DNA of 18,196 nt, taken from Candidatus Fermentibacteraceae bacterium (GTDB lineage: Bacteria; Fermentibacterota; Fermentibacteria; Fermentibacterales; JCC-6). The notes beneath the pieces are model-generated. The model had not been told where the DNA came from. It saw nothing but the letters and a program-made list of their open reading frames with translations, and did not search any database. The position numbers were made by a program, and so were the translations under genes. The stretch covers positions 1 to 18,196 of the forward strand of contig JAWLEP010000047.1 of assembly GCA_041686025.1 (NCBI GenBank). The letters run 5' to 3'. Positions 1-15,306 of the stretch are shown one piece after another. Every line of letters begins with the position of its first letter. Within the stretch, counting starts at the first letter, position 1.

Positions 1-97
1 AGCGAACGACTCATCATCCCCGCGCAGTGGCAGCGCGGGGCCCATCTTCAGGCAGCCCAATCTATTGTCCCCCGACGCTCCCCTGTCAACCGCCAAC

Positions 98-125
98 CGG
101 GGACGGAGTACAACTTGTACAACTT
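98..125 (+). repeat. Left terminal inverted repeat CGGGGACGGAGTACAACTTGTACAACTT
   Basis: Exact reverse complement of 2773-2800 (28/28). Contains GTACAACTT twice in tandem (108-116, 117-125). Confidence 0.95.
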
Positions 126-190
126 GATGGCCATTTATTGCACGCAGATTGTGTCTAGACGCTAGGTTTGCTGTCAGGTACGATGGGTAA

Positions 191-1717
191 CTAGCCAATC
201 ATGACACTGGTACTGGGGAAGAAGGGATCGCTGGTGAGATTCACTCCCAGCTTTCGCAGTCCGGTTTCATCCCCGGAACATGGCATGTGTGTGAGATGAA
301 CCTCTGTGCCCCTAAGCTCGGGCAGCATGGCCATGGCCTCACCGGTGGCGGGGCTGGTGGTGGCGCTGATGCTGAGGGCGATAAGTACCTCATCCAGTGT
401 CAGCTGAAGGCTTGACTGGCCCAGAGAGCTTTCCAGGCCCTGTATGGAATCGATGGTCTGTGGCGTAAGGAGGTGAATCTGCTCGGGGATACCGGCCAGT
501 TTCTTGATGGCGTTGAGCACAACGGCTCCAGCCGCATGCATCAGCTTCGAGCTTCGCCCCGTTACTATCGACCCGTCGGGAAGCTCCAGAGCGGCGCCAC
601 TTCTCTCTTCGTCTCCATCGATATTGCGCATTGAGACTGTAGCGGCCTGCCTTGCCGGCGGAACCACCGATCGGTCCTTTGGCTCGATATCGTTGTCTCC
701 CATCAGCAGCTCCACCTTCTGCACAGTTTCCTCATCCTCGATGCCCATCACGTACTCGCAGCGGTAGCGGAAGTACCTGCGGACGATCTCCTGACAGGCG
801 GCCTCGCGGACGACATCGTCGTCCACGATTCCGAAGCCCGCCCGGTTTACGCCCATGTCTGTGGGCGAAGCGTAGGGCGATTTGCTTCCCGAGATGCGCT
901 CAAGTATCCGCCTCAGCAGGGGGAAAGCCTCCACGTCCCGGTTGTAGTTGACGGCGGTTTTTCCGTAAGCGTCCATGTGGAAGGGATCCAGTAGATTTAC
1001 GTCTCGAAGGTCCGCCGTGGCAGCTTCGTATGCGGCGTTTACCGGATGTTTCAGAGGGAGGTTCCATATGGGGAATGTTTCGAACTTGGCGTAGCCGGCC
1101 TCCCTGCCACGGCGGTGCTCGTGGTAGAGCTGGCTGAGGCATGTGGCCAGCTTGCCGCTGCCGGGGCCCGGCCCGGTAACCACCACCAGAGGCTTCTCTG
1201 TCTCCAAGAAGTCGTTTCGGCCGTAGCCTTCCTCGCTGACGATAAGATCCACGTCGGTGGGGTAGCCCTTGGTGTAGTAGTGTCGGAAAACATCTACCCC
1301 TCTGCGCTCAAGTCTCTTCTGAAAGGTGACCGCAGCCGGCTGGTCATCGAATCTGGTGATAACGACGCCCCGCACGCTGAGCCCGTTCTCCCGCAGGCCA
1401 TCGATGAGCTTCATGGCGTCGGCATCGTAGGTGATGCCGAAGTCGCCCCGGAGCTTTCTCTTCTCGATGTCTCCCGCATAGATGCATAGGATGATCTCGG
1501 CTCGATCTGACAGCTCACGAAGAAGCGTTATCTTGACATTAGGCTTATAGCCGGGAAGCACCCTTGCGGCGTGGTAGTCATACATCAGCTTGCCGCCGAA
1601 CTCCAGGTAGAGCTTGCCGCTGAACCTCTCAATCCTCTCCACGATGGACTCGGTCTGCTCCCGGAGGTACTTGTGGTTATCAAAGCCGACTTCTGCCGTC
1701 GTGGAGCCGTTCTTCAT
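191..1717 (-). CDS. DUF1846 / UPF0371 family protein (uncharacterised, P-loop-like)
   Basis: 508 aa. Family-typical segments GFDNHKYL..Q, KLYLEFGGKL.D.HAARVLPG, VVVTGPGPGSGKLATCLSQLYHE, GYAKFETFPIWNLPLKHPVNAAYEAATADL, NYNRDVEAFP, SPTDMGVN. Confidence 0.9.
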   Translation of the reverse strand: MKNGSTTAEVGFDNHKYLREQTESIVERIERFSGKLYLEFGGKLMYDYHAARVLPGYKPNVKITLLRELSDRAEIILCIYAGDIEKRKLRGDFGITYDADAMKLIDGLRENGLSVRGVVITRFDDQPAAVTFQKRLERRGVDVFRHYYTKGYPTDVDLIVSEEGYGRNDFLETEKPLVVVTGPGPGSGKLATCLSQLYHEHRRGREAGYAKFETFPIWNLPLKHPVNAAYEAATADLRDVNLLDPFHMDAYGKTAVNYNRDVEAFPLLRRILERISGSKSPYASPTDMGVNRAGFGIVDDDVVREAACQEIVRRYFRYRCEYVMGIEDEETVQKVELLMGDNDIEPKDRSVVPPARQAATVSMRNIDGDEERSGAALELPDGSIVTGRSSKLMHAAGAVVLNAIKKLAGIPEQIHLLTPQTIDSIQGLESSLGQSSLQLTLDEVLIALSISATTSPATGEAMAMLPELRGTEVHLTHMPCSGDETGLRKLGVNLTSDPFFPSTSVMIG

Positions 1718-1747
1718 GTCAGTCGTCCTCTGGTCGGTGTCAACCCA

Positions 1748-1776
1748 TTGAAGTTTTGCCGCTGTCCGTATAAACT
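1748..1776 (+). promoter_or_regulatory. Putative sigma70 promoter of the transposase (probably leaderless mRNA)
   Basis: TTGAAG (1748-1753), 17 nt, TAAACT (1771-1776). The ATG at 1785 follows the -10 box after 8 nt, with no Shine-Dalgarno. Confidence 0.5.
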
Positions 1777-1784
1777 AATAGTGT

Positions 1785-2765
1785 ATGCCAAGACTTGCGA
1801 GGCCCGATTACGAAGATGCTGTCCATCACGTTATGGGTCGGGGGATCGAAAAGCGGCCGATCTTCACCTGCCATCGCGACAGATCGGAGTTCCTCGACCG
1901 AATGGAGGCCGTATGTCCTGAATGCGGTCTCGAAATATATGCCTGGTCACTGATGCCCAACCATTTCCATCTGCTCCTCAGGAGGAAGAAACAGAAGCTG
2001 GGCCATGGAATGCGCAGGTTGCTCTGCGGTTATGCTTCCTGGTTCAACCGTCGATACGAGAGGAGCGGCCGTCTGTTCCAGGGGCGCTACAAATCCAAGC
2101 TTGTTGAAACCGAGCGCTACCTCGCCAGACTCGTAAGGTACATCCATCTGAATCCCGTCAAGGCCGGAATGATAGATAACGAAACCCTAGAGTCTTATCC
2201 CTGGACGGGACACAGGGCACTCATGGGGACGGTGAAGCTCTCCTGCCAGAATACTTCGGCAGTACTTGCCTTCTTCGGGGACTCTGAGAGCTCTGGAAGA
2301 AAAAACCTCTCGGAATACATGTCGGTCGAAGACCCAGAGCCGGAGGAGTTGGGACGATGGTGCTGGACCCTCAGCTTCGGAGAAAGAAAACGGAAATGCC
2401 ATGTGGCTGCAATTGGCTCCGAGGAATTCAGGCGCAGCATTGCCATGCGTTCCGAACCCGGAGCCAGATCAACTCGCGTTGGGAACCCCGGACATCTTGC
2501 ATCTGCGATGGACGATCTCTGCAGAGAGATGGGCGCCAGCCCCGCGAGAATCCGGGGCGGGGCAAAGGGCGGCAGTCTCTCCGAAGTCCGAGCTGCCATA
2601 TCATTCCTGGGTACAGTTGTGCTGGGTTTGACCACCACCCAGGTTTCTCGACACTTAGGAGTGTCTCAGCAGTCAGTAAGTAAATCAGTTGCTCGGGGAA
2701 GAAGGATTCTGGCAGAGAACCCCGACATGCGCAGTAGACTTATCTCTATGCTCACCAACAAGTAA
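1785..2765 (+). CDS. REP-associated tyrosine transposase-like protein (Y1_Tnp HUH domain + C-terminal DnaA_C-like HTH)
   Basis: 326 aa. N-terminal MPR.AR...HHVMGRG, HUH motif MPNHFHLL, GRLFQGRYKS, catalytic Tyr motif RYIHLNPVKAGM, YPWTG. C-terminal HTH-like LTTTQVSRHLGVSQQSVSKSVARG. Confidence 0.92.
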   Translation: MPRLARPDYEDAVHHVMGRGIEKRPIFTCHRDRSEFLDRMEAVCPECGLEIYAWSLMPNHFHLLLRRKKQKLGHGMRRLLCGYASWFNRRYERSGRLFQGRYKSKLVETERYLARLVRYIHLNPVKAGMIDNETLESYPWTGHRALMGTVKLSCQNTSAVLAFFGDSESSGRKNLSEYMSVEDPEPEELGRWCWTLSFGERKRKCHVAAIGSEEFRRSIAMRSEPGARSTRVGNPGHLASAMDDLCREMGASPARIRGGAKGGSLSEVRAAISFLGTVVLGLTTTQVSRHLGVSQQSVSKSVARGRRILAENPDMRSRLISMLTNK

Positions 2766-2772
2766 CTGAATT

Positions 2773-2800
2773 AAGTTGTACAAGTTGTACTCCGTCCCCG
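2773..2800 (-). repeat. Right terminal inverted repeat AAGTTGTACAAGTTGTACTCCGTCCCCG
   Basis: Exact reverse complement of 98-125, immediately downstream of the transposase stop codon. Confidence 0.95.
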
Positions 2801-2815
2801 AAAGGGCCGTCCCCG

Positions 2816-2849
2816 GAAGGGGGGCGGCGCCGAAGCGCCGCCCCCCTTC
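2816..2849 (-). terminator. Strong stem-loop, probable terminator or 3' stabilising hairpin of the C25 peptidase gene
   Basis: Perfect 15-bp stem GAAGGGGGGCGGCGC/GCGCCGCCCCCCTTC. On the - strand the loop reads C(UUCG)G. Lies 25 nt past the peptidase stop. No clear U-tract. Confidence 0.65.
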
Positions 2850-2874
2850 TCTGCGTGGCTGTGGTAGTCTGCGG

Positions 2875-5145
2875 CTAGCGGATCACCATCGCCTGTCGGG
2901 TAAGGGTACCCTCGGGGGTGGTGAGCCGGACGAAGTAGACGCCGCTGGTGATGTCGGTGGGCGTCCAGTTGTAGGTGTAGTTGCCGGCATCCATCTCGCC
3001 GCTTATCAGGGTACGCACCTTGCGGCCGGTGACATCGAAGACCGTCAGCTCGACATGGCCCGGGCTGGGCATGCCGTAGCCTATGCTGGCGCTCACCGTA
3101 ACCGGGTTGGGCGCGGGGTTGTTCAGGTGCAGCGAGTAGGGCCTGGAAGCTGTCTGGTCGACTGCCTCGGGCCAGATGTCGATGTTGTCGACGTCGAAGG
3201 TGTAGTTGTGCTTGAAGGCGCCCACCGTCAGCTCGCCGTTCTCGGGCACGTCGACGCTGATGGTCACCTGCCCGGAGGAGTTGGTTGTGGCCTCCTCGTA
3301 GACGGTGAGGGCGTCAATGCCGTCGACGCCGTCGCAGATGGTGACGTCCGCACCCTCAACCGGGGAGCCGTTGGAGTTCACTGTTACGGTGATGTCCTGC
3401 GGCCCCGGGTTGACGTGTCCCGCGGTGACTATGTCCAGCGGGGTGGGGAGGGCGTCGTCGTTGGTCCAGGTGTCAACCGCCGGGTCGCCGAACCAGATGT
3501 ACATCTTGGCGTTGGACTCGCCCAGGCTTCCGTGGTAGTCGAGTATGTACTCGGTGGAGTACATGATGGTCTCGCCTATCCGGTAGAGACCCTCGTCGTA
3601 GAGCCCGCGGTAGATGCGCTTCATGTAGTCGTGGTTGGGCACTGTGTAGGAGGGGTTGGTGGCCGCCAGGTTGCCGTAGCAGCCGTTATCGGCCCACTGC
3701 CAGGCCTCGGCCAGGCAGGTGCCGGACTCATTGTAGCGGCCGCAGTAGCAGGCGATGTTGAACACCGGCGGCATGAAGTCGTTGGTCAGGCTGTTGATGT
3801 TGCTGGAGTTCCAGCCCGGTGACCAGGACCAGTAGGTGACGTCGCCGTGCCCGCGGTAGCCGACCGTACCTATACCGTCGTTGATGAGGTTCTCGAGGTC
3901 GTCGGCGGTGGCCCCCTCCGGCGGGTAGAGCTTGTCGAAGCTGACGTCGCAGAGGGAGTACGGGTAGGCGGCTATGCTGTCGCAGCACTCGGTGTACTTA
4001 CCCGGGTACTGTTCCTCGTGGGCGGCGAGCACCGTCTCGCTGGGAGTGATGCCGGTGGTGGCGAGGTCCTCCCACGCGTAGTTGATGTAGCCGTCCATGG
4101 TCTTGTCCACCTGGTGAGCTATCTGGGCCTCGTCGCCGGTTAGACGGCCCACGGCTATCTCGGGGTAGAGGTCTCCGCCGGTAAGGCAGGCGTAGTAGTA
4201 GTCCCCGACGTGGGAGCCGTAGCTGTAGGACGGCATGTCATCGTGGTCGCCCGCTATCAGGGCGAACCTCATGACGCCGGTGTCGTAGTTGTCGGCGATG
4301 GCTCCGAACATCTCACCGGGGTCGGAGGGGTTGGAAAGGGTCTCCACCCTGGCCTTCAGCCCCATGGCGTTGTGGTGCTCTATCAGGGGCTGGACGTCGT
4401 CGATGTTGTCGGCGTTCACCAGGAACACGTACTCCGGAGCGTCGTCGGCACCGTCGGCCTGGGCCGCGCTGTGGAAGTCGGCGAAGTTGATGACGCGATC
4501 ACGGTAGGCGGCGAACATGGCCCTGTTGCTCGGGTGCGCCGGAACCTCCATCTGCCCGGTGAAGTCCACCCTCACCAGTATCCTGGAGGCCGCCATCAGC
4601 TCACCCGTCTGGGGGTTGTACCGGAAGGGGTGCACGTTCAGGCGCGCCACCCGCAGGCCCGACCAGATGCCCTCGTTGTCCGCGTCGACCCAGCTTCCGG
4701 GGAAGACCCTGTCGGAGGAGTAGTAGGCCTGGTCCATCTCGAAGGGGTAGGGGGCGTGGGGCATGTCGATCTCGGGAGTCTGCCTGGGCATCAGCTCGAC
4801 GTCATCGAAGGTGGAGTACTCGACGTCCTCCACCGAGACCTCCGGGCTGGTTCCGAAGGGCAGGGCGAACAGCTTGCGCCAGGACTGGACCTCCGGAAGG
4901 CCCACCATGTCGTGGGTACGGCACTGCGAAAGCGCCAGCCTCTGCCATACCTGGCCCTCGGCCGGGAAGTCGTAGAGCCAGAACCCGGGAACCTCGAGCT
5001 CCACCAGGATATGGTCGAAGTCGGACTCCAGGAGCCTGACCTCTATCCCCTCGCCGGAACGGCCGCCCAGGGACTGCCAGTCGGCGGGCCCGTATGCCAT
5101 GGCCACCACGGCGATTAGAAGTGACGCCAGAAGAGAGAGTCGCAC
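2875..5145 (-). CDS. Gingipain-like peptidase C25 with propeptide and C-terminal T9SS/FlgD-Ig sorting domain
   Basis: 756 aa, GTG start with AAGGAGG upstream, signal peptide. Propeptide-like VGLPEV..., RVARLNVHPFRYNP. C25 motifs ALIAGD, GDYYYACLTGGDLYPEIAVGRL, YRGHG (His), IACYCG (Cys), WFGDP. C-terminal PNP...VFDVTGRKVRTL...SGVYFVRL. Confidence 0.88.
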   Translation of the reverse strand: MRLSLLASLLIAVVAMAYGPADWQSLGGRSGEGIEVRLLESDFDHILVELEVPGFWLYDFPAEGQVWQRLALSQCRTHDMVGLPEVQSWRKLFALPFGTSPEVSVEDVEYSTFDDVELMPRQTPEIDMPHAPYPFEMDQAYYSSDRVFPGSWVDADNEGIWSGLRVARLNVHPFRYNPQTGELMAASRILVRVDFTGQMEVPAHPSNRAMFAAYRDRVINFADFHSAAQADGADDAPEYVFLVNADNIDDVQPLIEHHNAMGLKARVETLSNPSDPGEMFGAIADNYDTGVMRFALIAGDHDDMPSYSYGSHVGDYYYACLTGGDLYPEIAVGRLTGDEAQIAHQVDKTMDGYINYAWEDLATTGITPSETVLAAHEEQYPGKYTECCDSIAAYPYSLCDVSFDKLYPPEGATADDLENLINDGIGTVGYRGHGDVTYWSWSPGWNSSNINSLTNDFMPPVFNIACYCGRYNESGTCLAEAWQWADNGCYGNLAATNPSYTVPNHDYMKRIYRGLYDEGLYRIGETIMYSTEYILDYHGSLGESNAKMYIWFGDPAVDTWTNDDALPTPLDIVTAGHVNPGPQDITVTVNSNGSPVEGADVTICDGVDGIDALTVYEEATTNSSGQVTISVDVPENGELTVGAFKHNYTFDVDNIDIWPEAVDQTASRPYSLHLNNPAPNPVTVSASIGYGMPSPGHVELTVFDVTGRKVRTLISGEMDAGNYTYNWTPTDITSGVYFVRLTTPEGTLTRQAMVIR

Positions 5146-5402
5146 TTTGGAAACCTCCTTGCTTATGGTTGTACGAGTGACTGCCAGGGTAAGATAGGTA
5201 CCTTGTATCCTTATCCTTGTAACGTATCCGGGTCAAGACCCGCGTCGGTGCGAAAGCAGCTGAGGAAGCGTACCGGATACCGCAGAAACCCGCTTCTCTC
5301 CTTATTCCAAACGTCTCCGGCGCCTGTGGGTTCCCGCCGACGAAACTTGACCTTCCTCCGTCGGCAGGGCAGTGTTGTACGGCATGCACCGAAAGGAGAG
5401 AG

Positions 5403-6104
5403 ATGAGATCACGTTTCTATGGAGTGTTACTGCTTTGCGCCGCCGCCGCTTTCGCGGGCCCCAGGTTCGGCGGCAGGCTGGGATGGTACCAGGGTGAGCA
5501 GCCGAGGATGGGGGACGACGCCTCCAACCTGGCCTTCGGCGGACAGTTCGTCTTCCCGATAATGGGAATGGTGGACCTGGAGTTCAGCGCAGGCTACACC
5601 TCCCAGGAGGACGACATCACCCTCGAGAACTACCTGATGAACTACCTGGAGGAGGAAGAGGGCATCGAGTTCGGCGGGGACGTTGACTCCCTGATGGGCT
5701 ACGTGGAGGACGAGTGGGGCTGGTCTCCCTCCACCGACACCCTCACCCAGACCTACACCAACAAGTTCCACGACCTGGACCTGGGTGCGACGCTGAAGGT
5801 CAACCTGCCGCTGGGCGGCATGCCCTTCAAGCCCTACATCGGCGGGGGCGGGGGCGCTCACTTCATCGTCAGCGAGGCCGACGCCCTGATACAGCTGGTG
5901 AACGCCCAGGCGGGCAACTCAGTGGACATAGACCCCTACGACCACGTGCATCCGGGCATACACGGCGTGGTGGGCGCCACCTTCCAGCCACCCATGTCGC
6001 CCATCAGCGTCTTCGCGGAGTACAAGCTGGCCAGGGCCCTGGGAGACGAAGCGGGAGCGGGGGGGATAAACTCCTTCGCAGCAGGCGTTAACCTGGGCTT
6101 CTAG
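5403..6104 (+). CDS. Outer-membrane beta-barrel protein (small, OmpA/OmpW-like)
   Basis: 233 aa, AAAGGAG RBS, signal peptide, amphipathic strands (FGGRLGW, DLEFSAGY, KPYIGGGGG, VFAEYK), C-terminal AAGVNLGF ending in Phe. Confidence 0.7.
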   Translation: MRSRFYGVLLLCAAAAFAGPRFGGRLGWYQGEQPRMGDDASNLAFGGQFVFPIMGMVDLEFSAGYTSQEDDITLENYLMNYLEEEEGIEFGGDVDSLMGYVEDEWGWSPSTDTLTQTYTNKFHDLDLGATLKVNLPLGGMPFKPYIGGGGGAHFIVSEADALIQLVNAQAGNSVDIDPYDHVHPGIHGVVGATFQPPMSPISVFAEYKLARALGDEAGAGGINSFAAGVNLGF

Positions 6105-6919
6105 TCGGCGGATCCCAACAGGGGGCCGGAGCTTTTCCGAACGGAAGCTCCGGCCCTCATCAGCTCGAACAGGTTGGGGCCGGAGGCCACGATTCCGGCA
6201 GACCCCAGGACCCAGTCGCCCCCCTCGAAGGCTCCCACCCGTCCCCCGGCCTCGGCTACCAGCAGCGCCCCCGCCGCCATGTCCCAGGGCTTGAGGTGCT
6301 GCTCGTAGAACCCGTCCGCCCTTCCGCAGGCCACGTAGGCCAGATCCAGCGCCGCAGACCCGGCCCTCCGCACCCCCTGGGCCCGCCCCAGGAAGTGGAC
6401 CAGTGGGGCCAGCTCCAGGCCGGGGTCGGACTCCGAGCGGTGGTAGGGAAACCCGGTGCAGATCAGGGCGCGGTCCAGCTCGGACACCTCGGAGGCGGCA
6501 ACCGGCCTCCCGCCCAGGAATGCGCCCCCGCCCCTGACGGCCGAGAACAGCTCATCCCTGGTGGGGTCGTAGACGACGGCCGCCAGCGGGCCGCTTTTGT
6601 CGCAGAGGGCCACGCTGACGCAGAAGACGGGAAAGCCGTGGGCGTAGTTGTTGGTTCCGTCCAGCGGGTCCACAACCCACAGAGGCGGGTCGGGAATTCT
6701 GCCGTCCCAGTCCTCCTCTCCCAGGAATGCGGCGTCGGGACGCAGCCCGCAGAGGCGCTCCCTCAGGAGCTCCTGGGAGGCCAGGTCGGCGGAGGTCACC
6801 AGCTCGTGGTCGTCCTTCCGGTAGACGCTGACACCACGCCTGAGGTGCTCCATCAGGATCTCTCCGGCGTCGCGGGACGCCTCCGAGATGGACTCTGCAA
6901 GTCCGTCGGTTTCGCCCAA
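6101..6919 (-). CDS. suhB: Inositol monophosphatase family protein (SuhB-like)
   Basis: Motifs LVTSADLASQ, FLGEE, WVVDPLDGTNNYAHG, RRAGSAALDLAYVACGRADG, LKPWDMAAGALLVAEAGG. Start re-assigned to TTG at 6919 (GGAGG 9 nt upstream) instead of ATG 7000. Confidence 0.9.
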   Translation of the reverse strand: MGETDGLAESISEASRDAGEILMEHLRRGVSVYRKDDHELVTSADLASQELLRERLCGLRPDAAFLGEEDWDGRIPDPPLWVVDPLDGTNNYAHGFPVFCVSVALCDKSGPLAAVVYDPTRDELFSAVRGGGAFLGGRPVAASEVSELDRALICTGFPYHRSESDPGLELAPLVHFLGRAQGVRRAGSAALDLAYVACGRADGFYEQHLKPWDMAAGALLVAEAGGRVGAFEGGDWVLGSAGIVASGPNLFELMRAGASVRKSSGPLLGSAD

Positions 6920-6987
6920 GGGTTGCGGCCTCCCTTCATCGCATGATCCCCAGCCGGCGTCGGGTGCATGATAAGGCCCGGTCATGA

Positions 6988-7016
6988 TTGTGCAACCCAA
7001 GTCAAGGGATTATTAT
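6988..7016 (+). promoter_or_regulatory. Putative sigma70 promoter for the channel operon
   Basis: TTGTGC (6988-6993), 17 nt, TATTAT (7011-7016), in an AT-richer patch between divergent genes. Confidence 0.4.
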
Positions 7017-7079
7017 GATGGGCGAATAGTCATTCCGCTACGCCGGAGCGACGAAAGGGCCCTTGAAGAGGGGAATCTG

Positions 7080-8963
7080 GTGGACGGCTTCTCCCTGAAG
7101 CAGCGGATCCGCTACAGGATCGACCGGCTGGTTGCCAAGAGCGCCATATGGCAGGTCCTGATGCTGGCCGTGGTGGTGGTGGCGCTGATGGTGATCGGCG
7201 CCCTTGCGGTTAGCCAGTGCAACCCCGAGAACCTGGGCCGGGACGGCGACGCGCCCTGGACCTACCGGCTCTGGTGGGCGGCGATACGGGTGATAGACCC
7301 CGGCAACTTCGCCGGTGACTACACCGAGGAGATAGTGGCCGTAACCGGCGTGACAATCAGCCTGGCGGGCATACTGATCTTCTCGCTCCTCATCGGCATA
7401 CTCTCCTCCAAGCTCACCGAGAAGATGGACCTGATGAAGCGCGGCAAGTCGCCGGTGGTGGAGAGGGACCACACGGTCATAGTGGGCACTGGTGACAAGC
7501 TCTTCGACGTGGTGCGGGAGATAGTGGAGGCCAACGAGAACCACAGGGGCAGGGCCATAGCCGTCTTCTCCCCCGTGCCCAAGCAGGACATGGAGGAGGC
7601 CATGGACGAGCGGGTGGGGGATTTCAAGGGCACCCGCATGGCCTACAGGACGGGGAGGGCCTCGGACCTGGACGCCCTGAGGATGCTCAACCTGGGCGCC
7701 GCCCGCAGCCTGGTGGTTCTGGGGGAATCGGACCCGGCGAACATCAAGGTGCTCATGGCCGCACGGAGCCTGATGAGCGGGAAGAGGCAACGGAGGATCA
7801 GCGCCGTCTGCGAGATACGCGAGCAGCGGATGGGCCACATCGCCGAGCTCTCCTTTCCCGGCGTCCGCTGGGTCCCGGTGAGGGAGGTGATCACCAGGCT
7901 GGTGGTCCAGGTCTGCCGCCACCCAGGCCTGTCCAAAGTATACTCCGAGCTGCTGAGCTTCCAGGGCAACGAGATCTACTTCGTGGCAAAGCCGGGAATG
8001 GCCGGACGCAGCTTCGGGCAGATGGCCCTCTGCACCACGGAGAGTGTGGTGCTGGGAATCGCCAGGGGCGGGAGGATCATGCTCAATCCTCCGCCAGATA
8101 CCGCCATCGAGAAGGGCGATGATCTCGTAGTGCTGATGCTGGACGACGACAGGTTCGACCCCGACCTGTCCAGGGATGCGAAGCCGGTTGAGATCTGCGG
8201 CGATTGCCCTCGGCCCGAGCCCGGAAGGGAGCGGATACTGATCCTCTCGGGTGACCGGAGGAACCTGACGCTGATGGTGACCCTTCTGGACAGCTACGTG
8301 GGCCCGGAAAGCTCGGGCGTAATCGCCGGCTCTCTGCAGCCGGAGGAGGCGCGGAATCTGGTGGAGGGGATAGGAGACACCACGAATCTGGCGGTATCCT
8401 ACCGGAGGATGGCCAGGAGCGACCCCCGGGAGTTGGAGGAGCTGGCCCCCTTCGGCTACGACAGCGTGATAGTGACCTCCAGCGAGAGCGAGGACGACGA
8501 GACCTCCGACACCGAGTGCATCACCACCCTGCTGATAATGAAGAGGATACGCGAAGGGCTCTCCGCGCCACCGGAGACCACGGTGGTCTCGGAGATAAGG
8601 AACCCCCGCAACCGGAGGCTGGCCAACACCGCCGAGATAGACGATTTCGTGGTGAGCAACGAGGTCACCAGCATGGTCATGGCCCAGCTGGCCGAGGAAC
8701 CCAGGATCTGGGGCGTCTACAGGGAGATCTTCGACCCCAGGGGGTCCGAGATATACCTGCGCGGGGCCACCTGGATATGCCCCGGACAGGACACCGCAAC
8801 CTTCCGCGAGCTGGTGAGGTGCGGCCTGAGCAGGCGGGAGATAGTGATGGGGTGCATAGACTACGCGGGTGACGACGAGGGGGAGCTGGTTCTGAATCCG
8901 CCGCCGGACACCGTGGTGGACCTGCGCAACGGATGCCAGCTGGTGACCCTGGCGAAGGGATAG
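7080..8963 (+). CDS. CASTOR/POLLUX (DMI1)-like cation channel with tandem RCK domains
   Basis: RIRYRIDR N-terminus, TM helix, pore-like WW...IDPGNFAGD, second TM, then KRGKSPVVERDHTVIVG (RCK1), LSFQGNEIY, LNPPPD, DDFVVSNE..SMVMAQLAE, FDPRGSEIYL. Likely start GTG 7080 after GAGGGG; the ORF extends to 6984. Confidence 0.8.
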   Translation: MDGFSLKQRIRYRIDRLVAKSAIWQVLMLAVVVVALMVIGALAVSQCNPENLGRDGDAPWTYRLWWAAIRVIDPGNFAGDYTEEIVAVTGVTISLAGILIFSLLIGILSSKLTEKMDLMKRGKSPVVERDHTVIVGTGDKLFDVVREIVEANENHRGRAIAVFSPVPKQDMEEAMDERVGDFKGTRMAYRTGRASDLDALRMLNLGAARSLVVLGESDPANIKVLMAARSLMSGKRQRRISAVCEIREQRMGHIAELSFPGVRWVPVREVITRLVVQVCRHPGLSKVYSELLSFQGNEIYFVAKPGMAGRSFGQMALCTTESVVLGIARGGRIMLNPPPDTAIEKGDDLVVLMLDDDRFDPDLSRDAKPVEICGDCPRPEPGRERILILSGDRRNLTLMVTLLDSYVGPESSGVIAGSLQPEEARNLVEGIGDTTNLAVSYRRMARSDPRELEELAPFGYDSVIVTSSESEDDETSDTECITTLLIMKRIREGLSAPPETTVVSEIRNPRNRRLANTAEIDDFVVSNEVTSMVMAQLAEEPRIWGVYREIFDPRGSEIYLRGATWICPGQDTATFRELVRCGLSRREIVMGCIDYAGDDEGELVLNPPPDTVVDLRNGCQLVTLAKG

Positions 8964-8966
8964 TCC

Positions 8967-9710
8967 ATGTCCACAGCCCAAATCGTGAGGGCATCCGCCA
9001 GGCTGATGGGCCTGGTTCTGGGTGTACTGGCCCTGACGGCAGGGGCCGTCATAGTGCTGGTGGCACTCTCCTACAGGGGAAGCCTGGACGACTCCATGGA
9101 CACGGTATACGGCGGGCTGGAGAGCGCCCGGTCGGCGGTGGAGGCCGTATCCTCCGGCGCCTCGTCCTCCACCGACCTGGTCTCCCGGGTAAGGGAGTCG
9201 CTGGAGGCCAGCGGAGAGGTGCTGCAGGAGACCGGGGACGCCCTGGGGGGCACGCGGACCTCTGTGGACAGGCTGGGGAGCCTGACGTCGTCTGCCGCTT
9301 CGGAGCTGGCCGCGATCAGCGAGCGGGCGGCCGTGGTCCTGGGACGGAACAGCCTCGGCGCCACCATCGGCCAGCTACAGCAGAGCAGCCAGACCTCGCA
9401 GATGCTCTCGGCAAGGCTGGACACGCTGCGGGTCAGTATTCTCCACTTGAGGCAGGACGTACTGGAGGTGGCCCTGGCGGTGGAGGGCCTGGAGACGGAC
9501 ATGTTCTCCACGGAGGCGGCCTTCGGCAAGGCGGAGGAGCACCTGGCCGGCGCCGCCGAGGCCGCCGAGCGGCTTTCCGGCTCCGGGGCCCTCTTCTGGG
9601 TCCTGGCCGGTCTGGGTTGCATCGTTTTCCTGGCCGGCGTTCATCTGGTACTTCTCTCGGCCGTCCTGGCGGGCGTGCGGGAGGCAAAGGACGAAGGAGG
9701 TGAGGCATGA
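8967..9710 (+). CDS. Hypothetical membrane protein (TM - long heptad/helical region - TM)
   Basis: 247 aa, hydrophobic stretches near both termini, Ala/Ser/Leu/Glu-rich heptad-like middle. Starts 3 nt after the channel stop; host-like codon usage. Confidence 0.7.
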   Translation: MSTAQIVRASARLMGLVLGVLALTAGAVIVLVALSYRGSLDDSMDTVYGGLESARSAVEAVSSGASSSTDLVSRVRESLEASGEVLQETGDALGGTRTSVDRLGSLTSSAASELAAISERAAVVLGRNSLGATIGQLQQSSQTSQMLSARLDTLRVSILHLRQDVLEVALAVEGLETDMFSTEAAFGKAEEHLAGAAEAAERLSGSGALFWVLAGLGCIVFLAGVHLVLLSAVLAGVREAKDEGGEA

Positions 9711-10222
9711 GATATTTCTTCCCCGTTCTGTTCGCCGGCCTTGCGGCCTGCGCCTGGGCCGGCTCTGTAAGGATACTGGACCACGACCTGGAGATCCCGG
9801 TGGGCGGTTACAGGTACGTGGCCATCCCCGTGCAACCCTCGCAGGAGGAGGACGCTCGCATCGTGGGCGACCTGAAGGTAGACCCGGACACGCTGGGGGT
9901 GGAGCTGCTCCTGATATGGGAGTACCAGATGCCCGGCTGGACGGAGCTCGAGGCCGAGGTCGATACCCTCTACCACAGCAGACAGGCCTCCGGGTCCGTG
10001 AACATCCCCCTTCTGGGCTTCGGCCGCTACGCCCTGATACTCAGCAACCGCGGCAACTACGCGCCGGCGGAGGTGCACGGCACCCTGAGCCTGGTCTTCG
10101 AGGGCGAGGGCCGGGTCTACGACCCCCTTCAGACCGCGCTCTACCTGGCTCTTGCGCTGGTGGCACTGGGCGGTATCGTAACGCTGGTGGTTGTGGCCGT
10201 CAGGACTTTCAAGAATAAATAG
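9707..10222 (+). CDS. Hypothetical type I membrane protein (signal peptide, beta-rich domain, C-terminal TM)
   Basis: 171 aa, GGAGGT RBS, ATGA overlap with the upstream stop, N-terminal signal (..ACAWA), C-terminal hydrophobic helix and basic tail RTFKNK. Confidence 0.7.
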   Translation: MRYFFPVLFAGLAACAWAGSVRILDHDLEIPVGGYRYVAIPVQPSQEEDARIVGDLKVDPDTLGVELLLIWEYQMPGWTELEAEVDTLYHSRQASGSVNIPLLGFGRYALILSNRGNYAPAEVHGTLSLVFEGEGRVYDPLQTALYLALALVALGGIVTLVVVAVRTFKNK

Positions 10223-10288
10223 CGCGTGCAACCGGAAGAAGATGACTGACATAGAAGAGCTCAGATACATTGGAGAAAGGGAGTTCAC

Positions 10289-10741
10289 ATGCTGATTTCA
10301 ACCCGCAGCCGTTACGGTCTGAGAGCCCTGGCCGAGCTGGGAAGGAGTGATCCGGACGAGCCTCTCTCCCTGGCCAGCATCGCCGAGTCCGAGCTGATAC
10401 CCGTCCGTTACCTGGAGCAGATCTTCGGCAAGCTCAGGGCGGTGGGGATCATCTGCGGACGCCGGGGGCCGGGCGGGGGGTACATGCTCTGCAGGCCCCC
10501 CGAGGAGATCAGGCTCTACGACGTGGTCAACGTGCTGGAGACGGACTTCCTTCCCATCAACTGCCTTACCGACAGCGCCGAGTGCGGCGAGGCCGACGAG
10601 AACTGCCGCTGCAGGCTGGAGGACCGGTGCGTTACGAAGGAGCTGTGGGAGAAGATGCGTGATATCTACTTCACCATCCTGAGGGAGAACACACTTGCCG
10701 ATCTCATGGCCGGAGAGCTGCACAAGGTAGACCTCCGCTGA
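10289..10741 (+). CDS. Rrf2 family transcriptional regulator (IscR-like, Cys-rich)
   Basis: [37 protein letters not shown]; Cys cluster in the C-terminal half; AGGGAG RBS; heads nifU-nifS. Confidence 0.92.
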
Positions 10742-11313
10742 TGTGGAACTACAGCCAGAAGCTCCTCGACCACTTCACCAATCCCCGCAACGTGGGCTCC
10801 CTGGACAACCCCGACGGCCACGCCGAGGTGGGGTCTCCCGAGTGCGGCGACGCCATGCAGCTGGACATAAGGGTGGACGCAGATGACAGGATCGAGGAGG
10901 CGCTGTTCATGACCTTCGGCTGCGCCAGCGCCATCGCCTCCGCATCGGCGCTCACCGAGATGGTGAAGGGGCGGACCCTGGCGGAGGCCGAGAGCCTCGA
11001 GAACGACCAGATCGTGGAGTACCTGGGAGGCATGCCGGAGGAGAAGATCCACTGCTCGGTGATGGGCAGCGAGGCCATGCGCAGGGCCATTGCGGACTTC
11101 AGGAGCCGGCGCGACCGCGTTCGGCAGGCCATAGCCTCCCTGCCGCCTGAGCTGTCCCGGGCCCTGGAGGGCTGCAGTCTGCCCCTGGAGAGGGCGGGTG
11201 CCACCCGCGTGGAGCTGGTCTGCGGGGGCGAGGGCCGCCCTCCGGTGGAGGAGCTCGAGCGGTACCTGGCCGACAGAGCGGGGCATTCGGTGGAGGTGAA
11301 GGTCAGCGTATGA
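10741..11313 (+). CDS. nifU: Fe-S cluster scaffold (IscU/NifU N-terminal domain) with C-terminal extension
   Basis: [33 protein letters not shown] (three scaffold Cys); TGATG overlap with rrf2. Confidence 0.88.
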
Positions 11314-12458
11314 CGGCCTACTTCGACAGCAACGCCACCACCAGGCTGGCCCCGGAGGCCCTGGAGGCCATGCTTCCGTTCCTGGGGGAGAGCTACGGCA
11401 ACCCCTCGGCCTTCTGCCGCTTCGGCAGGGCGCTTCTGGACCCCATGGAGGGTGCGCGGATAGAGCTGGCCCACCTGCTGGGGGCCGACCCCTCCGAGAT
11501 CATCTTCACATCGGGCGGGACCGAGAGCAACAACATGGCCATCAAGGGGGCGGTAAGGCTCATGCCGGGAAGGAACAGGATAGTGGCCTCCGCCGTGGAG
11601 CACCCGGCGGTGATGGAGCCGCTGGCCTTCCTGGAACGGAACGGCATGGAGATAAGCTCCGTGCCGGTGGACGGCGAGGGCATGCTGGACCTTGCCGAGC
11701 TGGAATCCCTTCTGGACGAGGACGTGGCCCTGGTAACCGTGATGATGGCCAACAACGAGACCGGCGTGATCTTCCCCATGCAGCAGGTGGCCGAGATGGC
11801 CCACCGGGCGGGAGCCCTCTTCCACACCGACGCGGTGCAGGCGGTGGGCAAGATCCCGGTGGACGTGCAGCAGATAGGCGCAGACATGATCAGCGTGTCC
11901 GCCCACAAGCTCCACGGCCCCAAAGGAACGGGGGCGATATACATAAAGGGGGGCATAGACCTGCCGCCCCTGATACACGGGGGGCACCACGAGTGCGGCC
12001 TGCGGGCCGGCACCTACAACGTCCCGGGAATAGTGGGTCTGGGCAAAGCGGTGGCGCTGGCGGCCCGGGAGCTTGACCGGCAGGGCAGAGACCTCTCCTC
12101 CATGCGCAGGAGGATAGAGGAGATGATACTGGAGAGCTGCCCCGGCTCGTCCATCCTGGGCAGCGGCAGCCCGCGGCTTCCCAACACCATCTGCGTCGTC
12201 TTCGAGGGAGTGGAGAGCGAAGCGGTGCTCACCATGCTGGACATGGCGGGCATATGCGCCTCGTCGGGGTCGGCCTGCAGCACGGGCCAGTCGGGGCCCA
12301 GCCACGTGTTCAGGGCCATGGGCCTCAGCGACGCCCTGGCCAACAGCGCCGTGAGGATCAGCTTCGACCGCTACACGACCGAGGGGGACGAGAGGCTGCT
12401 GGCGGCGCACCTGCCGCAGATAATCGAGAAGCTGAGGGCCATCTCGCCCTACTCCTGA
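11310..12458 (+). CDS. nifS: Cysteine desulfurase (NifS/IscS group I)
   Basis: [51 protein letters not shown] (PLP Lys), RAGT.N, SSGSACS (catalytic Cys); ATGA overlap with nifU. Confidence 0.95.
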
Positions 12459-13108
12459 CCGGCCCCGCTCCCGTCCCGGCCCCTGAAGGCGGTGACCACC
12501 ACGAAGCTGCCCTCGTCGCGGCCCTCCTTCACCGGTTCTTCAACGTGTACGCTCTCCGCGTCTCCGAATAGGGTCTGCCGCCACTGCAGGCCCGACAGAC
12601 CGCAGCCTCGCACCAGCTCCTCGATCTCCGCCGAGGAGAAAAACGCGGCCGAGGCGTAGAACGGGCTGGCGTCCCGGTTGCCGCGGTAGAGCTTCCCCAG
12701 GCTGCTGTCGCGGTCGATGTAGCCGATGACCAGCCTCCCGCCGCCGCGCAGCACCCTTGATGCCTCGTCCACGCATGCCCGGGGGTCGTCCACGAAGCAT
12801 ATGGTGGTAACCACCAGCACCAGGTCGAAGGTGTCGTCGGCGAAGGGCAGGTGCTCGGCAACTCCGGCCACCGGCCTCATGCCCCTCTGCGCCGCCCGGC
12901 GGCGCATGGCGGCCGCCGGCTCTACCCCCATGCCTATGTGCAGGGGAATGGCGAACCTGCCCGTTCCCGAACCCACCTCCAGGCCCCTGCCCTGCTCATC
13001 GGGGGGGCCGGCGGCCGCCCGCACCGCCGCCAGCTCGGAGCGGTAGGCGGCTGCGTTGGTCCGGAACCAGCTGTCGTAGCGGTCGGCCTTCCTCTCGAAG
13101 ACGCTCAT
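12449..13108 (-). CDS. Class I SAM-dependent methyltransferase (Methyltransf_11-like)
   Basis: FERKADRYDSWF, LEVGSGTGRF (motif I), GVEPA, AEHLPFADDTFD, ICFVDDP, RVLRGGGRL. Start re-assigned to ATG 13108 (ATGA overlap with the upstream gene); 219 aa. Confidence 0.88.
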   Translation of the reverse strand: MSVFERKADRYDSWFRTNAAAYRSELAAVRAAAGPPDEQGRGLEVGSGTGRFAIPLHIGMGVEPAAAMRRRAAQRGMRPVAGVAEHLPFADDTFDLVLVVTTICFVDDPRACVDEASRVLRGGGRLVIGYIDRDSSLGKLYRGNRDASPFYASAAFFSSAEIEELVRGCGLSGLQWRQTLFGDAESVHVEEPVKEGRDEGSFVVVTAFRGRDGSGAGQE

Positions 13109-13710
13109 TTGATCTTCAGCGTGATGGCTCCGAAGGGGCACACCTCCAGGCAGGCTCCGCAGCGGACGCAGCGCCACCGGTCCACCATGGCCAGGCCATC
13201 GGCGGATATGGCCCCCACCGGGCAGGCCGGCTCGCAGAAGCCGCACTCCTCGCAGAGGCCGGCGTCCACGGAGGCCGCCATGGTGACGGAGACGCCGTTT
13301 CGGAGCCTGACATGCTCCCTCTCGGGAGCGGGCCGCATCCATTCACGCTCCACCCGGTCCCAGCGGAGGTGCAGCCTCTCCAGCACCTCGCCGGCCGGAG
13401 CGGGGTCGTCCATCACCGGCACGAAGTGCCTCACCAACCTCTTTATGTTGGGCCCGAAGCACCCGCCCACCACCACCTGCACTCCATGGGACTCCAGAAG
13501 CTGCCGCACGGACCCCGCCTTCGCAGAGGCGTCGTCCTCGGATACTTCCAGCGTCTCGTTTCGCACCAGGGTCAGCTCCCGGAAGCCGTCCTCTGAGTAC
13601 CTGTAGAGACGGTAGGCCTCGGCCGAGCCGAAGTGACGTCCGCTGAGCCTTCCCTGCGAGTCCACGGCCAGCGCCGCCGTGAGGTCGTCATTCGTCCCTT
13701 CCGGAGACAT
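13105..13710 (-). CDS. NifB/NifX-family domain fused to a 2x[4Fe-4S] ferredoxin domain
   Basis: HFGSAEAY, GVQVVVGGCFGP in the N-terminal domain; CEECGFCEPACP and CVRCGACLEVCP at the C-terminus; GGAAGG upstream of ATG. Confidence 0.85.
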   Translation of the reverse strand: MSPEGTNDDLTAALAVDSQGRLSGRHFGSAEAYRLYRYSEDGFRELTLVRNETLEVSEDDASAKAGSVRQLLESHGVQVVVGGCFGPNIKRLVRHFVPVMDDPAPAGEVLERLHLRWDRVEREWMRPAPEREHVRLRNGVSVTMAASVDAGLCEECGFCEPACPVGAISADGLAMVDRWRCVRCGACLEVCPFGAITLKIK

Positions 13711-13743
13711 CGTATCCCTTCCGTTGAACGTGGACAGCCGCTT

Positions 13744-14493
13744 CTAGAAGCCGAAGCCGGTCCAGGAGGCGCCCGCCTCCAGGCGGTAGCGCCAGGGTCC
13801 GTCCAGCCCCGCCCTGACGGCCCCGTGCAGGCCCATGGCTCCCGCCAGGTCGTAGGCGCAGCAGGCGGAGGCGGTGAGCTCGCCGGCGGTGCTTCCCTCC
13901 AGTGACCCCGCCAGCTGAAGCCCCCGGGAGACGAAGCTGGAGCTCCCGAAGACGAACCGGGCGTAGTCGTCGATGTCGTCGCTGAAGGGGTCGTTGCCGG
14001 AGGCCAGGCCGTACAGGCCTGTGGCAGAGAGCCGGAAGAGCCTGAAGGTGGTCCCGGTGGAGGCTCCCATCTCCAGACGCGATCCGCCGTCCCGGGACTC
14101 CGAGCCGGTGGGAAGCGAGGCCCTGGCCCGCAGGACCAGGTTGGTCCCGCCCCTGGCCCTCTCGTAGAGGTAGGAGGCCCCGACGCTGATGTTGCCCAGC
14201 GCCCCGCCCTCCATCCCGTCGTCGTCCAGGTAGAGGGGAAGGGCGGTGCAGACCTCCAGGTTCGAAAGCGCGCCCCAGCAGCCGCGAAGGGGAAGGCGGA
14301 CCAGATCGCTGCCCCCCTCCAGCTCCCCGAAGCCGGCTGCCGCGGTTATGCGCAGGCCGCCCACCGGCATCACGTCTGCGGTGGGAAGGCCGGGGAAGCC
14401 CGAAAAGCCGAACTCGTCGGTAAGCACCGCCGGCGCGTCCTCCGCGGGCAGCTGGAGCGGCAGCAGCAGAACCAGAAGAAGAGAGCAAGCCAC
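13744..14493 (-). CDS. Putative outer-membrane beta-barrel protein
   Basis: Probable GTG start at 14493 after AAAGGA, signal peptide, alternating strands (LGNISVGASY, RASLPTG, LEAGASWTGFGF) and terminal Phe. Confidence 0.6.
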   Translation of the reverse strand: MACSLLLVLLLPLQLPAEDAPAVLTDEFGFSGFPGLPTADVMPVGGLRITAAAGFGELEGGSDLVRLPLRGCWGALSNLEVCTALPLYLDDDGMEGGALGNISVGASYLYERARGGTNLVLRARASLPTGSESRDGGSRLEMGASTGTTFRLFRLSATGLYGLASGNDPFSDDIDDYARFVFGSSSFVSRGLQLAGSLEGSTAGELTASACCAYDLAGAMGLHGAVRAGLDGPWRYRLEAGASWTGFGF

Positions 14494-14655
14494 GGCGTGT
14501 CCTTTCTTCTCTCGGAATGGCAGTACGGGCCAGCAGTCGGCAGTTGCAGACCTGCTGTCCGTCTTACTATGAAATAACGGTCCCGCAGGGAATATAGTCA
14601 ACCGACCGGGAGGGTTCGTATCACAGCCTCGAAGACCCCGACGACTGGAGGGCGC

Positions 14656-15060
14656 ATGAAGCTGTCAGAGGCGGCCGTGATGCTGCTCACCGCCGCGGCC
14701 GTTTTCGGCCTGGTGATCGTCATCCTCCATCCGGAGCCCCCGGCCCGACCCGTGCCGGAGCCCGTACTGGAGCAGGCGGCGGAGTCCTCCTTCAGCCGGG
14801 AGTGCATGGAGGTGGGCTACGGCGCCGGGCAGTCCCCCCGGGTGGACTCCCTCAGCGGCGACACCATAGTGATGAGTATAGACCTGGACACCACCCGGTT
14901 CACCCAGCCCCAGGCGAACCTGCGGATCACCCGCCTGCTCCGGGAGCACGGGTACACCCACCATCTTACCCGCAGGAGGGCGGACGGCGGCCTTTCCTTC
15001 CTTGCCGAGAGGCCGGACGGGTACCCGCTGAGAATAGAGCTGAAGATCCCCGCCAGGTAG
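14656..15060 (+). CDS. Hypothetical protein with N-terminal membrane anchor
   Basis: 134 aa, GGAGGG RBS, hydrophobic N-terminal helix, Pro-rich linker, small alpha/beta domain. Confidence 0.65.
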   Translation: MKLSEAAVMLLTAAAVFGLVIVILHPEPPARPVPEPVLEQAAESSFSRECMEVGYGAGQSPRVDSLSGDTIVMSIDLDTTRFTQPQANLRITRLLREHGYTHHLTRRRADGGLSFLAERPDGYPLRIELKIPAR

Positions 15061-15114
15061 CCGGACTCCGCGCCGGAACGGGACACCTCCTGCCGTGGAG
15101 CCGAGGCCTGATCG

Positions 15115-15143
15115 TTGACAAGACGGCCTCGGGGAGGTATTTG
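15115..15143 (+). promoter_or_regulatory. Possible promoter of secDF
   Basis: Perfect TTGACA (15115-15120), 17 nt, TATTTG (weak -10). The -35 lies inside the inverted repeat CCGAGGCC/GGCCTCGG (15101-15108 / 15125-15132). Confidence 0.35.
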
Positions 15144-15306
15144 TCGCACCCTGTAAGCCCGATGGAGTTGGTTCGAGAGACGCAATTAGGAGTCCGCGCT
15201 CCGCGCCTGCGCCTTCCCGACAGGAGGCGGCGCCGGAGGCGCCGGACCGCCTGAGGCCGGAGTCCCCCGTCAAGAGCCGGCCCGTTACGTCCTACTGGAG
15301 GTCCCC

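Follow-up and report, generated by a model that had tools for sequence, protein, structure and literature searches.

Results

Anatomy of the locus

What kind of element lies at positions 98..2800 of the DNA analysed here? This DNA, to which we refer as the window, is a stretch of 18,196 nucleotides from a Candidatus Fermentibacteraceae bacterium (contig JAWLEP010000047.1, positions 1 to 18,196 of the forward strand). A preliminary description had proposed that the unit at 98..2800 consists of an HUH/Y1 transposase gene and a divergent DUF1846 gene, enclosed by true terminal inverted repeats and free of a target-site duplication. In its structural core this proposal is correct: the segments 98-125 and 2773-2800 are exact reverse complements, forming a perfect 28-bp terminal pair on an HUH/Y1 element, of which about 3e-8 would be expected by chance in the window, and both genes between them are confirmed by domain matches. 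The source genome (G000) is compared throughout with the sister species G001, the sole other species of the genus in the comparison, and with G006 from another genus, which serves as outgroup. Two types of ends, A and B, have the outer block in common and differ in the inner 18 bases, and within each species both ends of the element are of the same type. The features of the locus are as follows.

91..97, + strand: 7-bp tandem duplication at the outer junction, missing in G001
98..125, + strand: left end repeat, type A, composed of the junction CG (98-99), the outer block GGGACGGAG and, after it, a tandem pair of 9-bp units
126..190: spacer from the left end to the DUF1846 stop codon, unalignable with the G001 spacer
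191..1717, - strand: DUF1846 gene, 508 amino acids (PF08903 and PF20921), a native single-copy host gene
1718..1784: divergent intergenic region between DUF1846 and the transposase
1785..2765, + strand: transposase gene, a TIRYT (Y1 subclass 2.1), 326 amino acids (PF01797, E 4e-11)
2773..2800, - strand: right end repeat, type A, inverted copy of the left end
2801..2815, + strand: 15-bp junction duplication repeating the last 9 bases of the end, absent from G001 and from the contig of run X7
2816..2849, - strand: terminator-like hairpin belonging to the C25 peptidase gene, beyond the element, present also in four relatives that lack the element
2875..5145, - strand: C25 peptidase gene, ancestral upstream neighbour of DUF1846, in the flank outside the element

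The content of guanine and cytosine (GC) is 56.7% in the unit, 65.9% in the remaining window and 66.9% in the genome; three earlier hand counts on single 60-nucleotide lines (28, 29 and 41 of 60) were right. At third codon positions (GC3) it is 0.62 in the transposase, 0.73 in DUF1846 and 0.85-0.90 in five neighbours. Inspection by eye gives a weak sigma-70-like promoter for the transposase at 1748-1776, which the promoter scan did not list.

The absence of a target-site duplication holds only if the repeat is taken to include the terminal C/G, and fails if the boundary is set at 99/100 and 2798/2799, where a 2-bp direct repeat CG flanks the unit; both readings fit the data. CG precedes 9 of 11 type-A ends and 14 of 19 type-B ends, and four of the five type-B exceptions, on inspection, are nested inner copies.

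The transposase is a TIRYT

The HUH motif NHFH occupies residues 59-62 of the transposase and the catalytic motif YIHLNP residues 119-124. A C-terminal helix-turn-helix is predicted at about residues 280-305 from profile matches below the Pfam cut-offs (HTH_23, E 0.006; MarR_2, E 2e-4), and the C-terminal tail of the orthologous G001 transposase matches Bac_DnaA_C, also below the cut-off (E 6e-4). Together, NHFH, YIHLNP and the weakly scoring helix-turn-helix give the signature of Y1 subclass 2.1, a subclass that, according to Quentin et al. (2018; PMC6006769), is the same as the TIRYTs of Di Nocera et al. and ranks second in size, with 14.9% of species. The first eight bases of the end (GGGGACGG) fit GGGGWSAS at 7 of 8 positions. 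The element is a TIRtron: it combines a Y1 core with NH[YF]H and Y[IV]HLNP, a C-terminal helix-turn-helix, terminal inverted repeats, and dispersed single or dimeric copies of these repeats. The class has been known since 2013 (PMC3733652), in keeping with the earlier suspicion that it was partly described, and our literature searches on TIRYTs and TIRtrons found no bench study of it.

Other assignments were considered and rejected. A REPtron, built around repetitive extragenic palindromes (REPs), is contradicted by the lack of a REP array in the repeat scan, by the weak folding of the ends and by a score of 64.8 bits for NF047646, below the cut-off of 80. Membership in IS200/IS605 is at odds with the protein length of 326 amino acids, with Y-x3-NP in place of Y-x3-Q and with the terminal repeats themselves, and recognition of hairpins as in that family is at odds with the weak 5-bp hairpin of type A (z -1.0 to -1.3) and with type B, which has none. 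No solved structure matched the transposase significantly, and the metagenome and genome contig collections each yielded one distant homologue locus, at 35% identity.

The same genome also has a classical short IS200/605-type TnpA (G000:C20:51365-51727) and a Y1 homologue (G000:C14:19517-20530; L115) that is likely a fully domesticated copy. The HUH motif of this homologue is degenerate, it lacks end repeats, its GC3 (0.91) resembles that of the host and its divergence is ordinary.

DUF1846 is native to the locus

DUF1846 occurs in one copy in the source genome and in 32 of 34 relatives of the order (in one of them as two fragments), and in none of six genomes outside the order. The locus was inspected in 29 of the 31 further genomes with a DUF1846 match, mostly with flanks of 1.5 kb and in ten with longer ones. 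In 13 of these 29, the C25 peptidase gene lies upstream of DUF1846 and two genes that we take, from their translations, to be rpsF and ssb lie downstream; rpsF/ssb were found downstream in 15 of the 29, and an intact Y1 gene adjoining DUF1846 in none. Four of the inspected relatives have a terminator-like hairpin and a short spacer between C25 and DUF1846, and it is this spacer that the TIRtron occupies. Because DUF1846 is single-copy in the order and the arrangement C25-DUF1846-rpsF is kept without a transposase in 13 of the 29 relatives, the gene is native to the locus; an origin as imported cargo, as the preliminary description had it, is ruled out by this synteny, which that description had itself named among the findings that would refute it.

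The protein is homologous over its full length to PDB 7F00 (E 7e-165), an entry labelled UPF0371 protein SPRM200_0309, which we infer to be the orthologue of Spd_0310. The latter is PyrJ, a DUF1846 ammonia-dependent CTP synthase, according to the account in bioRxiv 10.1101/2024.09.24.614635. Thus, by sequence homology, the enclosed gene is likely to encode a CTP synthase of the PyrJ type. Like PyrJ, it is a full-length DUF1846 protein; the host has pyrG as well, which would make a CTP synthase role of DUF1846 redundant. A strict reading in which the element holds an essential gene hostage is weakened by pyrG, though DUF1846 is reported as essential in C. difficile (PMC12157513).

One site in three states

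In G001 the same site carries end, DUF1846, transposase and end over 2722 bp between the corresponding flanks, and both ends are of type B. In G006 an internally deleted TIRtron of 535 bp lies at the start of DUF1846 in the same orientation, with 11 bp between its inner end and the start codon; its ends are of a third type, with 29 matches in that genome. Thus, the position of the left end after the DUF1846 stop codon holds type A in G000, type B in G001 and no end repeat in G006. The inner left end expected within 1718..1784, present in G006, is absent here (best match with 10 mismatches in 24) and gone in G001 too. The G001 spacer after the DUF1846 stop codon also holds a second, decayed nested type-B end, as is typical of B dimers.

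The decayed but ordinary TIRtron of G006, with its inner end beside the DUF1846 start, suggests that the left end was relocated past the resident gene, and we infer that the G006 arrangement is the ancestral state. In such a scenario, the space from the C25 terminator to the DUF1846 start would first have held an ordinary TIRtron, as is still seen in deleted form in G006. The ancestor of G000 and G001 would then have gained a repeat dimer behind the DUF1846 stop codon and lost the inner ends, so that one end pair was left around DUF1846. Later, the transposase and both ends would have changed, with the ends passing from type B to type A.

Synteny in G006 is broken at the right end of the deleted TIRtron (L055:7300-7323), where the neighbour is not the C25 peptidase gene. 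Next to the left end in the window (84-99) lies a conserved motif, possibly the rpsF promoter. Ends of types A and B often stand directly after a stop codon or beside a TTGAC (-35-like) motif.

How common are such enclosures? Our set of related Y1 loci comprised 80 (78 matches from other genera; two more G001 loci and one distant locus are counted within the 80; duplicates and three loci were excluded). Plain end-gene-end units account for 59, with a median of 1133 bp, and 12 have no repeat pair, several of these near contig ends. The best repeat pair is long in eight, of which four are plain units with extra ends nearby and four scored low (12-14). A plain TIRtron with extra ends nearby (4 of 80) is the intermediate that would be expected for gene enclosure.

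Three individual loci may be mentioned here. In G033 (L149:1871-6259), a plain TIRtron is accompanied by an additional left end 3.2 kb upstream of it, and a HipA-like gene and a further open reading frame (ORF) are thereby enclosed. A lone type-C end, about 1.7 kb upstream of a type-C TIRtron by G001 synteny and past a peptidase C13-like gene (G000:C14:62256; L112), is a possible intermediate of gene enclosure. A lone type-A end facing a citrate-lyase-like gene (PF03328; L068:1500-2900, G000:C7:65529-66930) possibly marks a second enclosed host gene; its far side is an assembly gap, at which an inward-facing B end lies in G001.

Both ends switched type between the sister species

G000 has four families of ends, with 11 ends in A, 19 in B, about 21 in C and 13 in D, and one cognate TIRtron each for A (C47), C (the C22 end) and D (C74). 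The 11 type-A ends lie at six sites, of which four are dimers of 97-165 bp with unrelated interiors and one a single end elsewhere; non-autonomous repeat-only elements, which the preliminary description had suggested looking for, thus exist. Type-A ends were found in none of 40 relatives and in no viral contig. Type B has 23 matches in G001, and no B enzyme was found in G000, whose assembly is 95% complete. Since type B stands at orthologous sites in both genomes and 19 B ends are left in G000 without a B enzyme, type B is the older type. At ten aligned G001 B sites, G000 has B at seven, A at two and a gap at one. At one other site, a newer D dimer stands directly next to a collapsed dimer that is built of the G001-type D end (G000:C13:20456-20489).

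The genes between the ends have diverged to very different degrees. Between G000 and G001, identity is 55-56% for the transposases, whose synonymous sites are saturated, and 93% for DUF1846. At four-fold sites, the difference has a median of 0.34 and a 95th percentile of 0.51 over 132 ORF pairs, a set that still includes some wrong-frame ORFs. DUF1846 (0.41) and the repeat-less Y1 homologue (0.37) may be set against this, and the three TIRtron genes of G000 reach 0.70 (the transposase here), 0.67 and 0.56. After correction, DUF1846 stands at 0.62 against a genome median of 0.50, and the transposase at about 2.5 (saturated). Since the three TIRtrons of G000 have the same, orthologous locations in G001, this high divergence means that their genes were either replaced in place or mutate fast, two explanations that fit alike. 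The perfect repeats, moreover, give no insertion date, because both ends changed together after the species split; the orthologous unit in G001 speaks against the recent insertion once proposed.

Is the end pair a unit at all? Conceivably, the functional remnant is the transposase with its right end, and the left repeat is an orphan dimer half that faces it by chance, which would make the 2.7-kb unit meaningless. Orphan single ends are common in G000, extra ends lie near 4 of the 80 related TIRtrons, the G001 left end resembles half of a nested B dimer, and ends went from B to A at 2 of 9 scorable dimer sites as well. However, the ends match in both species, in type and in nearly every base, the two comparable orphan B ends (C23 and C53) stayed B, and the inner end is gone in both species. 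We therefore regard a coincidental pair as rather unlikely.

Two-part ends

The inner half of the ends shows a 9-bp period. Over 39 non-redundant ends of long TIRYTs, the mean best match is 5.54 of 8 against 3.37 in shuffles, with 0 of 500 shuffles reaching the observed value, the loci being kin and the cases thus not independent; other periods in these ends were not significant. The recognition helix of the transposase differs between A and B.

Mobility and strain comparison

The unit is present once in G000. No second copy or empty site was found in G000, in 40 relatives or in viral contigs, and the contigs of four runs, one of them possibly from the source itself, contain end-to-end joints (dimers) and no left-flank-to-right-flank joint or circle closure, it being understood that contigs show presence, not absence. 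Clean empty sites of type-A or type-B ends were not found either; what G001 has in place of C6 and C39 is unrelated or rearranged sequence. Dimers of types C and D are missing from one species at three orthologous sites, with extra bases at the junctions and no clean target duplication.

These results bear on the view that an intact, recently inserted transposon brings DUF1846 as cargo to new sites, for which the perfect ends, the intact reading frame, the low GC content and the matching non-autonomous dimers can be adduced. DUF1846 is native and single-copy, however, G001 holds the unit at the orthologous site, there is one copy per genome, the empty site, second copy and circle joint that were looked for did not appear in the material just listed, and the plasmid matches, among those listed (10 of 24 records), all lie below 40% identity. 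The view is thus largely refuted and highly improbable.

Short tandem duplications occur at 91-97, at 2801-2815 and at several dimer sites. Two of 24 overlap junctions of the assembly fall at TIRtron ends, one at 99/100 (the left junction) and one 4-5 bp from an end of a second TIRtron; the break at 99/100 fits an empty allele and a junction-repeat variant alike and does not distinguish them. Together with a strain that lacks the 15-bp duplication, these duplications and breaks suggest that the ends are still active.

Run X6 differs at 10 of 1212 positions over the transposase contig (six of the ten differences being synonymous) against 28 of 514 in C25, and run X7 at 9 of 1213 against 80 of 885, with 42 of 1182 over the left part of the unit. 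Could the whole unit, DUF1846 included, be swapped as an allele between strains or species by recombination, perhaps from an enzyme nick, and so be mobile only into its own site? The smaller differences over the transposase than in C25, the low GC3 of the enclosed DUF1846 and the breaks at the two ends would all agree with this. Speaking against it are the near-median divergence of DUF1846 beside that of the transposase, as the two have not travelled together throughout, and the 42 differences of X7 within the unit; metagenome contigs, furthermore, may mix strains, and the comparison covered one flank. We consider a site-faithful exchange of this kind very unlikely.

Elsewhere in the window, a CASTOR/POLLUX-like ion channel gene (PF06241, TrkA_N) lies at 6984-8963 and an ordinary iron-sulfur assembly cluster, rrf2-nifU-cysteine desulfurase, at 10289-12458.

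Discussion

What can be concluded about the way of life of this element? With a probability of roughly 60%, we read it as a TIRtron resident at one site in two sister species, its ends enclosing a native gene; as a unit it is likely immobile, with its enzyme likely serving to spread and renew short dimers of the end repeat. How the enzyme might do so can be sketched from its relatives. In the inner half of each end, the tandem 9-bp units would be the binding site of the C-terminal helix-turn-helix; cutting and rejoining would fall to the HUH/Tyr119 centre, acting on single-stranded DNA at the CG that adjoins the constant outer block. With symmetric ends either strand could serve, and the two ends of one element would probably be renewed together, and so kept matched to each other and to the resident enzyme.

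Several points weigh against this reading. The genus is sampled by two species only, and the strain comparison covers the contigs of four of the 20 runs that contain the stretch. At the two dimer sites that went from B to A no transposase gene is linked, and the left end could have converted independently in the same way. The G006 TIRtron could be an independent insertion at a hotspot. Low GC3 in DUF1846 is confined to the two genomes that enclose it (0.73 and 0.79), at 0.17 and 0.09 below C25 compared with a mean of 0.03 in 13 relatives; this deficit and the lower strain divergence inside the unit than in C25 fit an exchange of the whole unit between strains. Finally, binding, cut site and single-strand chemistry are presumed by analogy with what is described for TnpA-REP (PMC8266576) and IS200/605 (PMC6006769).

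A bolder version would make the TIRYTs end-exchange enzymes, which read a two-part end (a constant cleavage block plus 9-bp helix-turn-helix sites) and overwrite ends and intervening DNA, their own gene included, at fixed chromosomal slots. The locus, with its ends flanking a conserved CTP-synthase gene and the upstream control region inside the element, would then tie its own survival to a host gene. We offer this as a speculation that is more probably wrong than right, and quite unlikely as it stands.

The significance of the locus, under the reading of a resident TIRtron, is twofold. Perfect inverted repeats around a gene prove neither recent insertion nor cargo. And one site in three natural states (G006, G001, G000) comes with a matched A/B pair of enzymes and ends, in which the outer block is common and the inner repeats and the recognition helix differ, making end recognition, the cut site and the unexplained orthoswitch, to which we return below, directly testable.

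How does the element compare with known systems? As in the TIRtrons of Di Nocera, De Gregorio and Rocco (2013; PMC3733652), a RAYT-like gene (RAYT, REP-associated tyrosine transposase) lies between inverted ends that start with a GGGGWSAS-like block, and the repeats form families of dimers. Unlike there, a whole host gene separates the left end from the transposase, over a distance of 1.66 kb; the passages of that paper on TIRtrons make no mention of enclosed genes, a target motif, 9-bp sub-repeats or a switch of end type. With subclass 2.1, which is RAYT group 1 (Quentin et al., 2018; Bertels et al., 2017, PMC5581495), the transposase shares, as the class is characterized there, NHFH, YIHLNP, the lack of REP hairpins and a long C-terminal tail with a DnaA-like or HTH_23-like helix-turn-helix. 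In their discussion of the tail, Quentin et al. doubt that it binds the ends, as the outer consensus is unlike a DnaA box; against this doubt, the 9-bp tandem units of the inner half provide a candidate tail site. The HUH/Y1 core and the presumed single-strand cleavage and rejoining are common to IS200/IS605 elements (IS608, ISDra2) and to TnpA-REP, as described in PMC8266576 and PMC6006769. In contrast to IS200/IS605, the element has no conserved subterminal hairpin, no tnpB and Y-x3-NP instead of Y-x3-Q, and is present in a single copy.

The closest precedent for the switch of ends is the REP 'orthoswitch' which Nunvar et al. (2013; PMC3686654) report for GTAG hairpin REPs at syntenic RAYT loci, with a mechanism given there as unknown. 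As in that case, an orthologous transposase locus has differing cognate repeats in related genomes, and the old class is left behind. Unlike in that account, the repeats here are non-hairpin terminal repeats, both ends switch across a host gene, and the new type replaces the old at the identical nucleotide junction of dimer sites. Our literature searches found no description of an orthoswitch for terminal repeats, and a concerted switch, between sister species, in the inner halves of two ends that lie 2.7 kb from each other looks undescribed. The element thus belongs to a known class, to which it adds the in-place enclosure of a core gene and the concerted switch of its ends.

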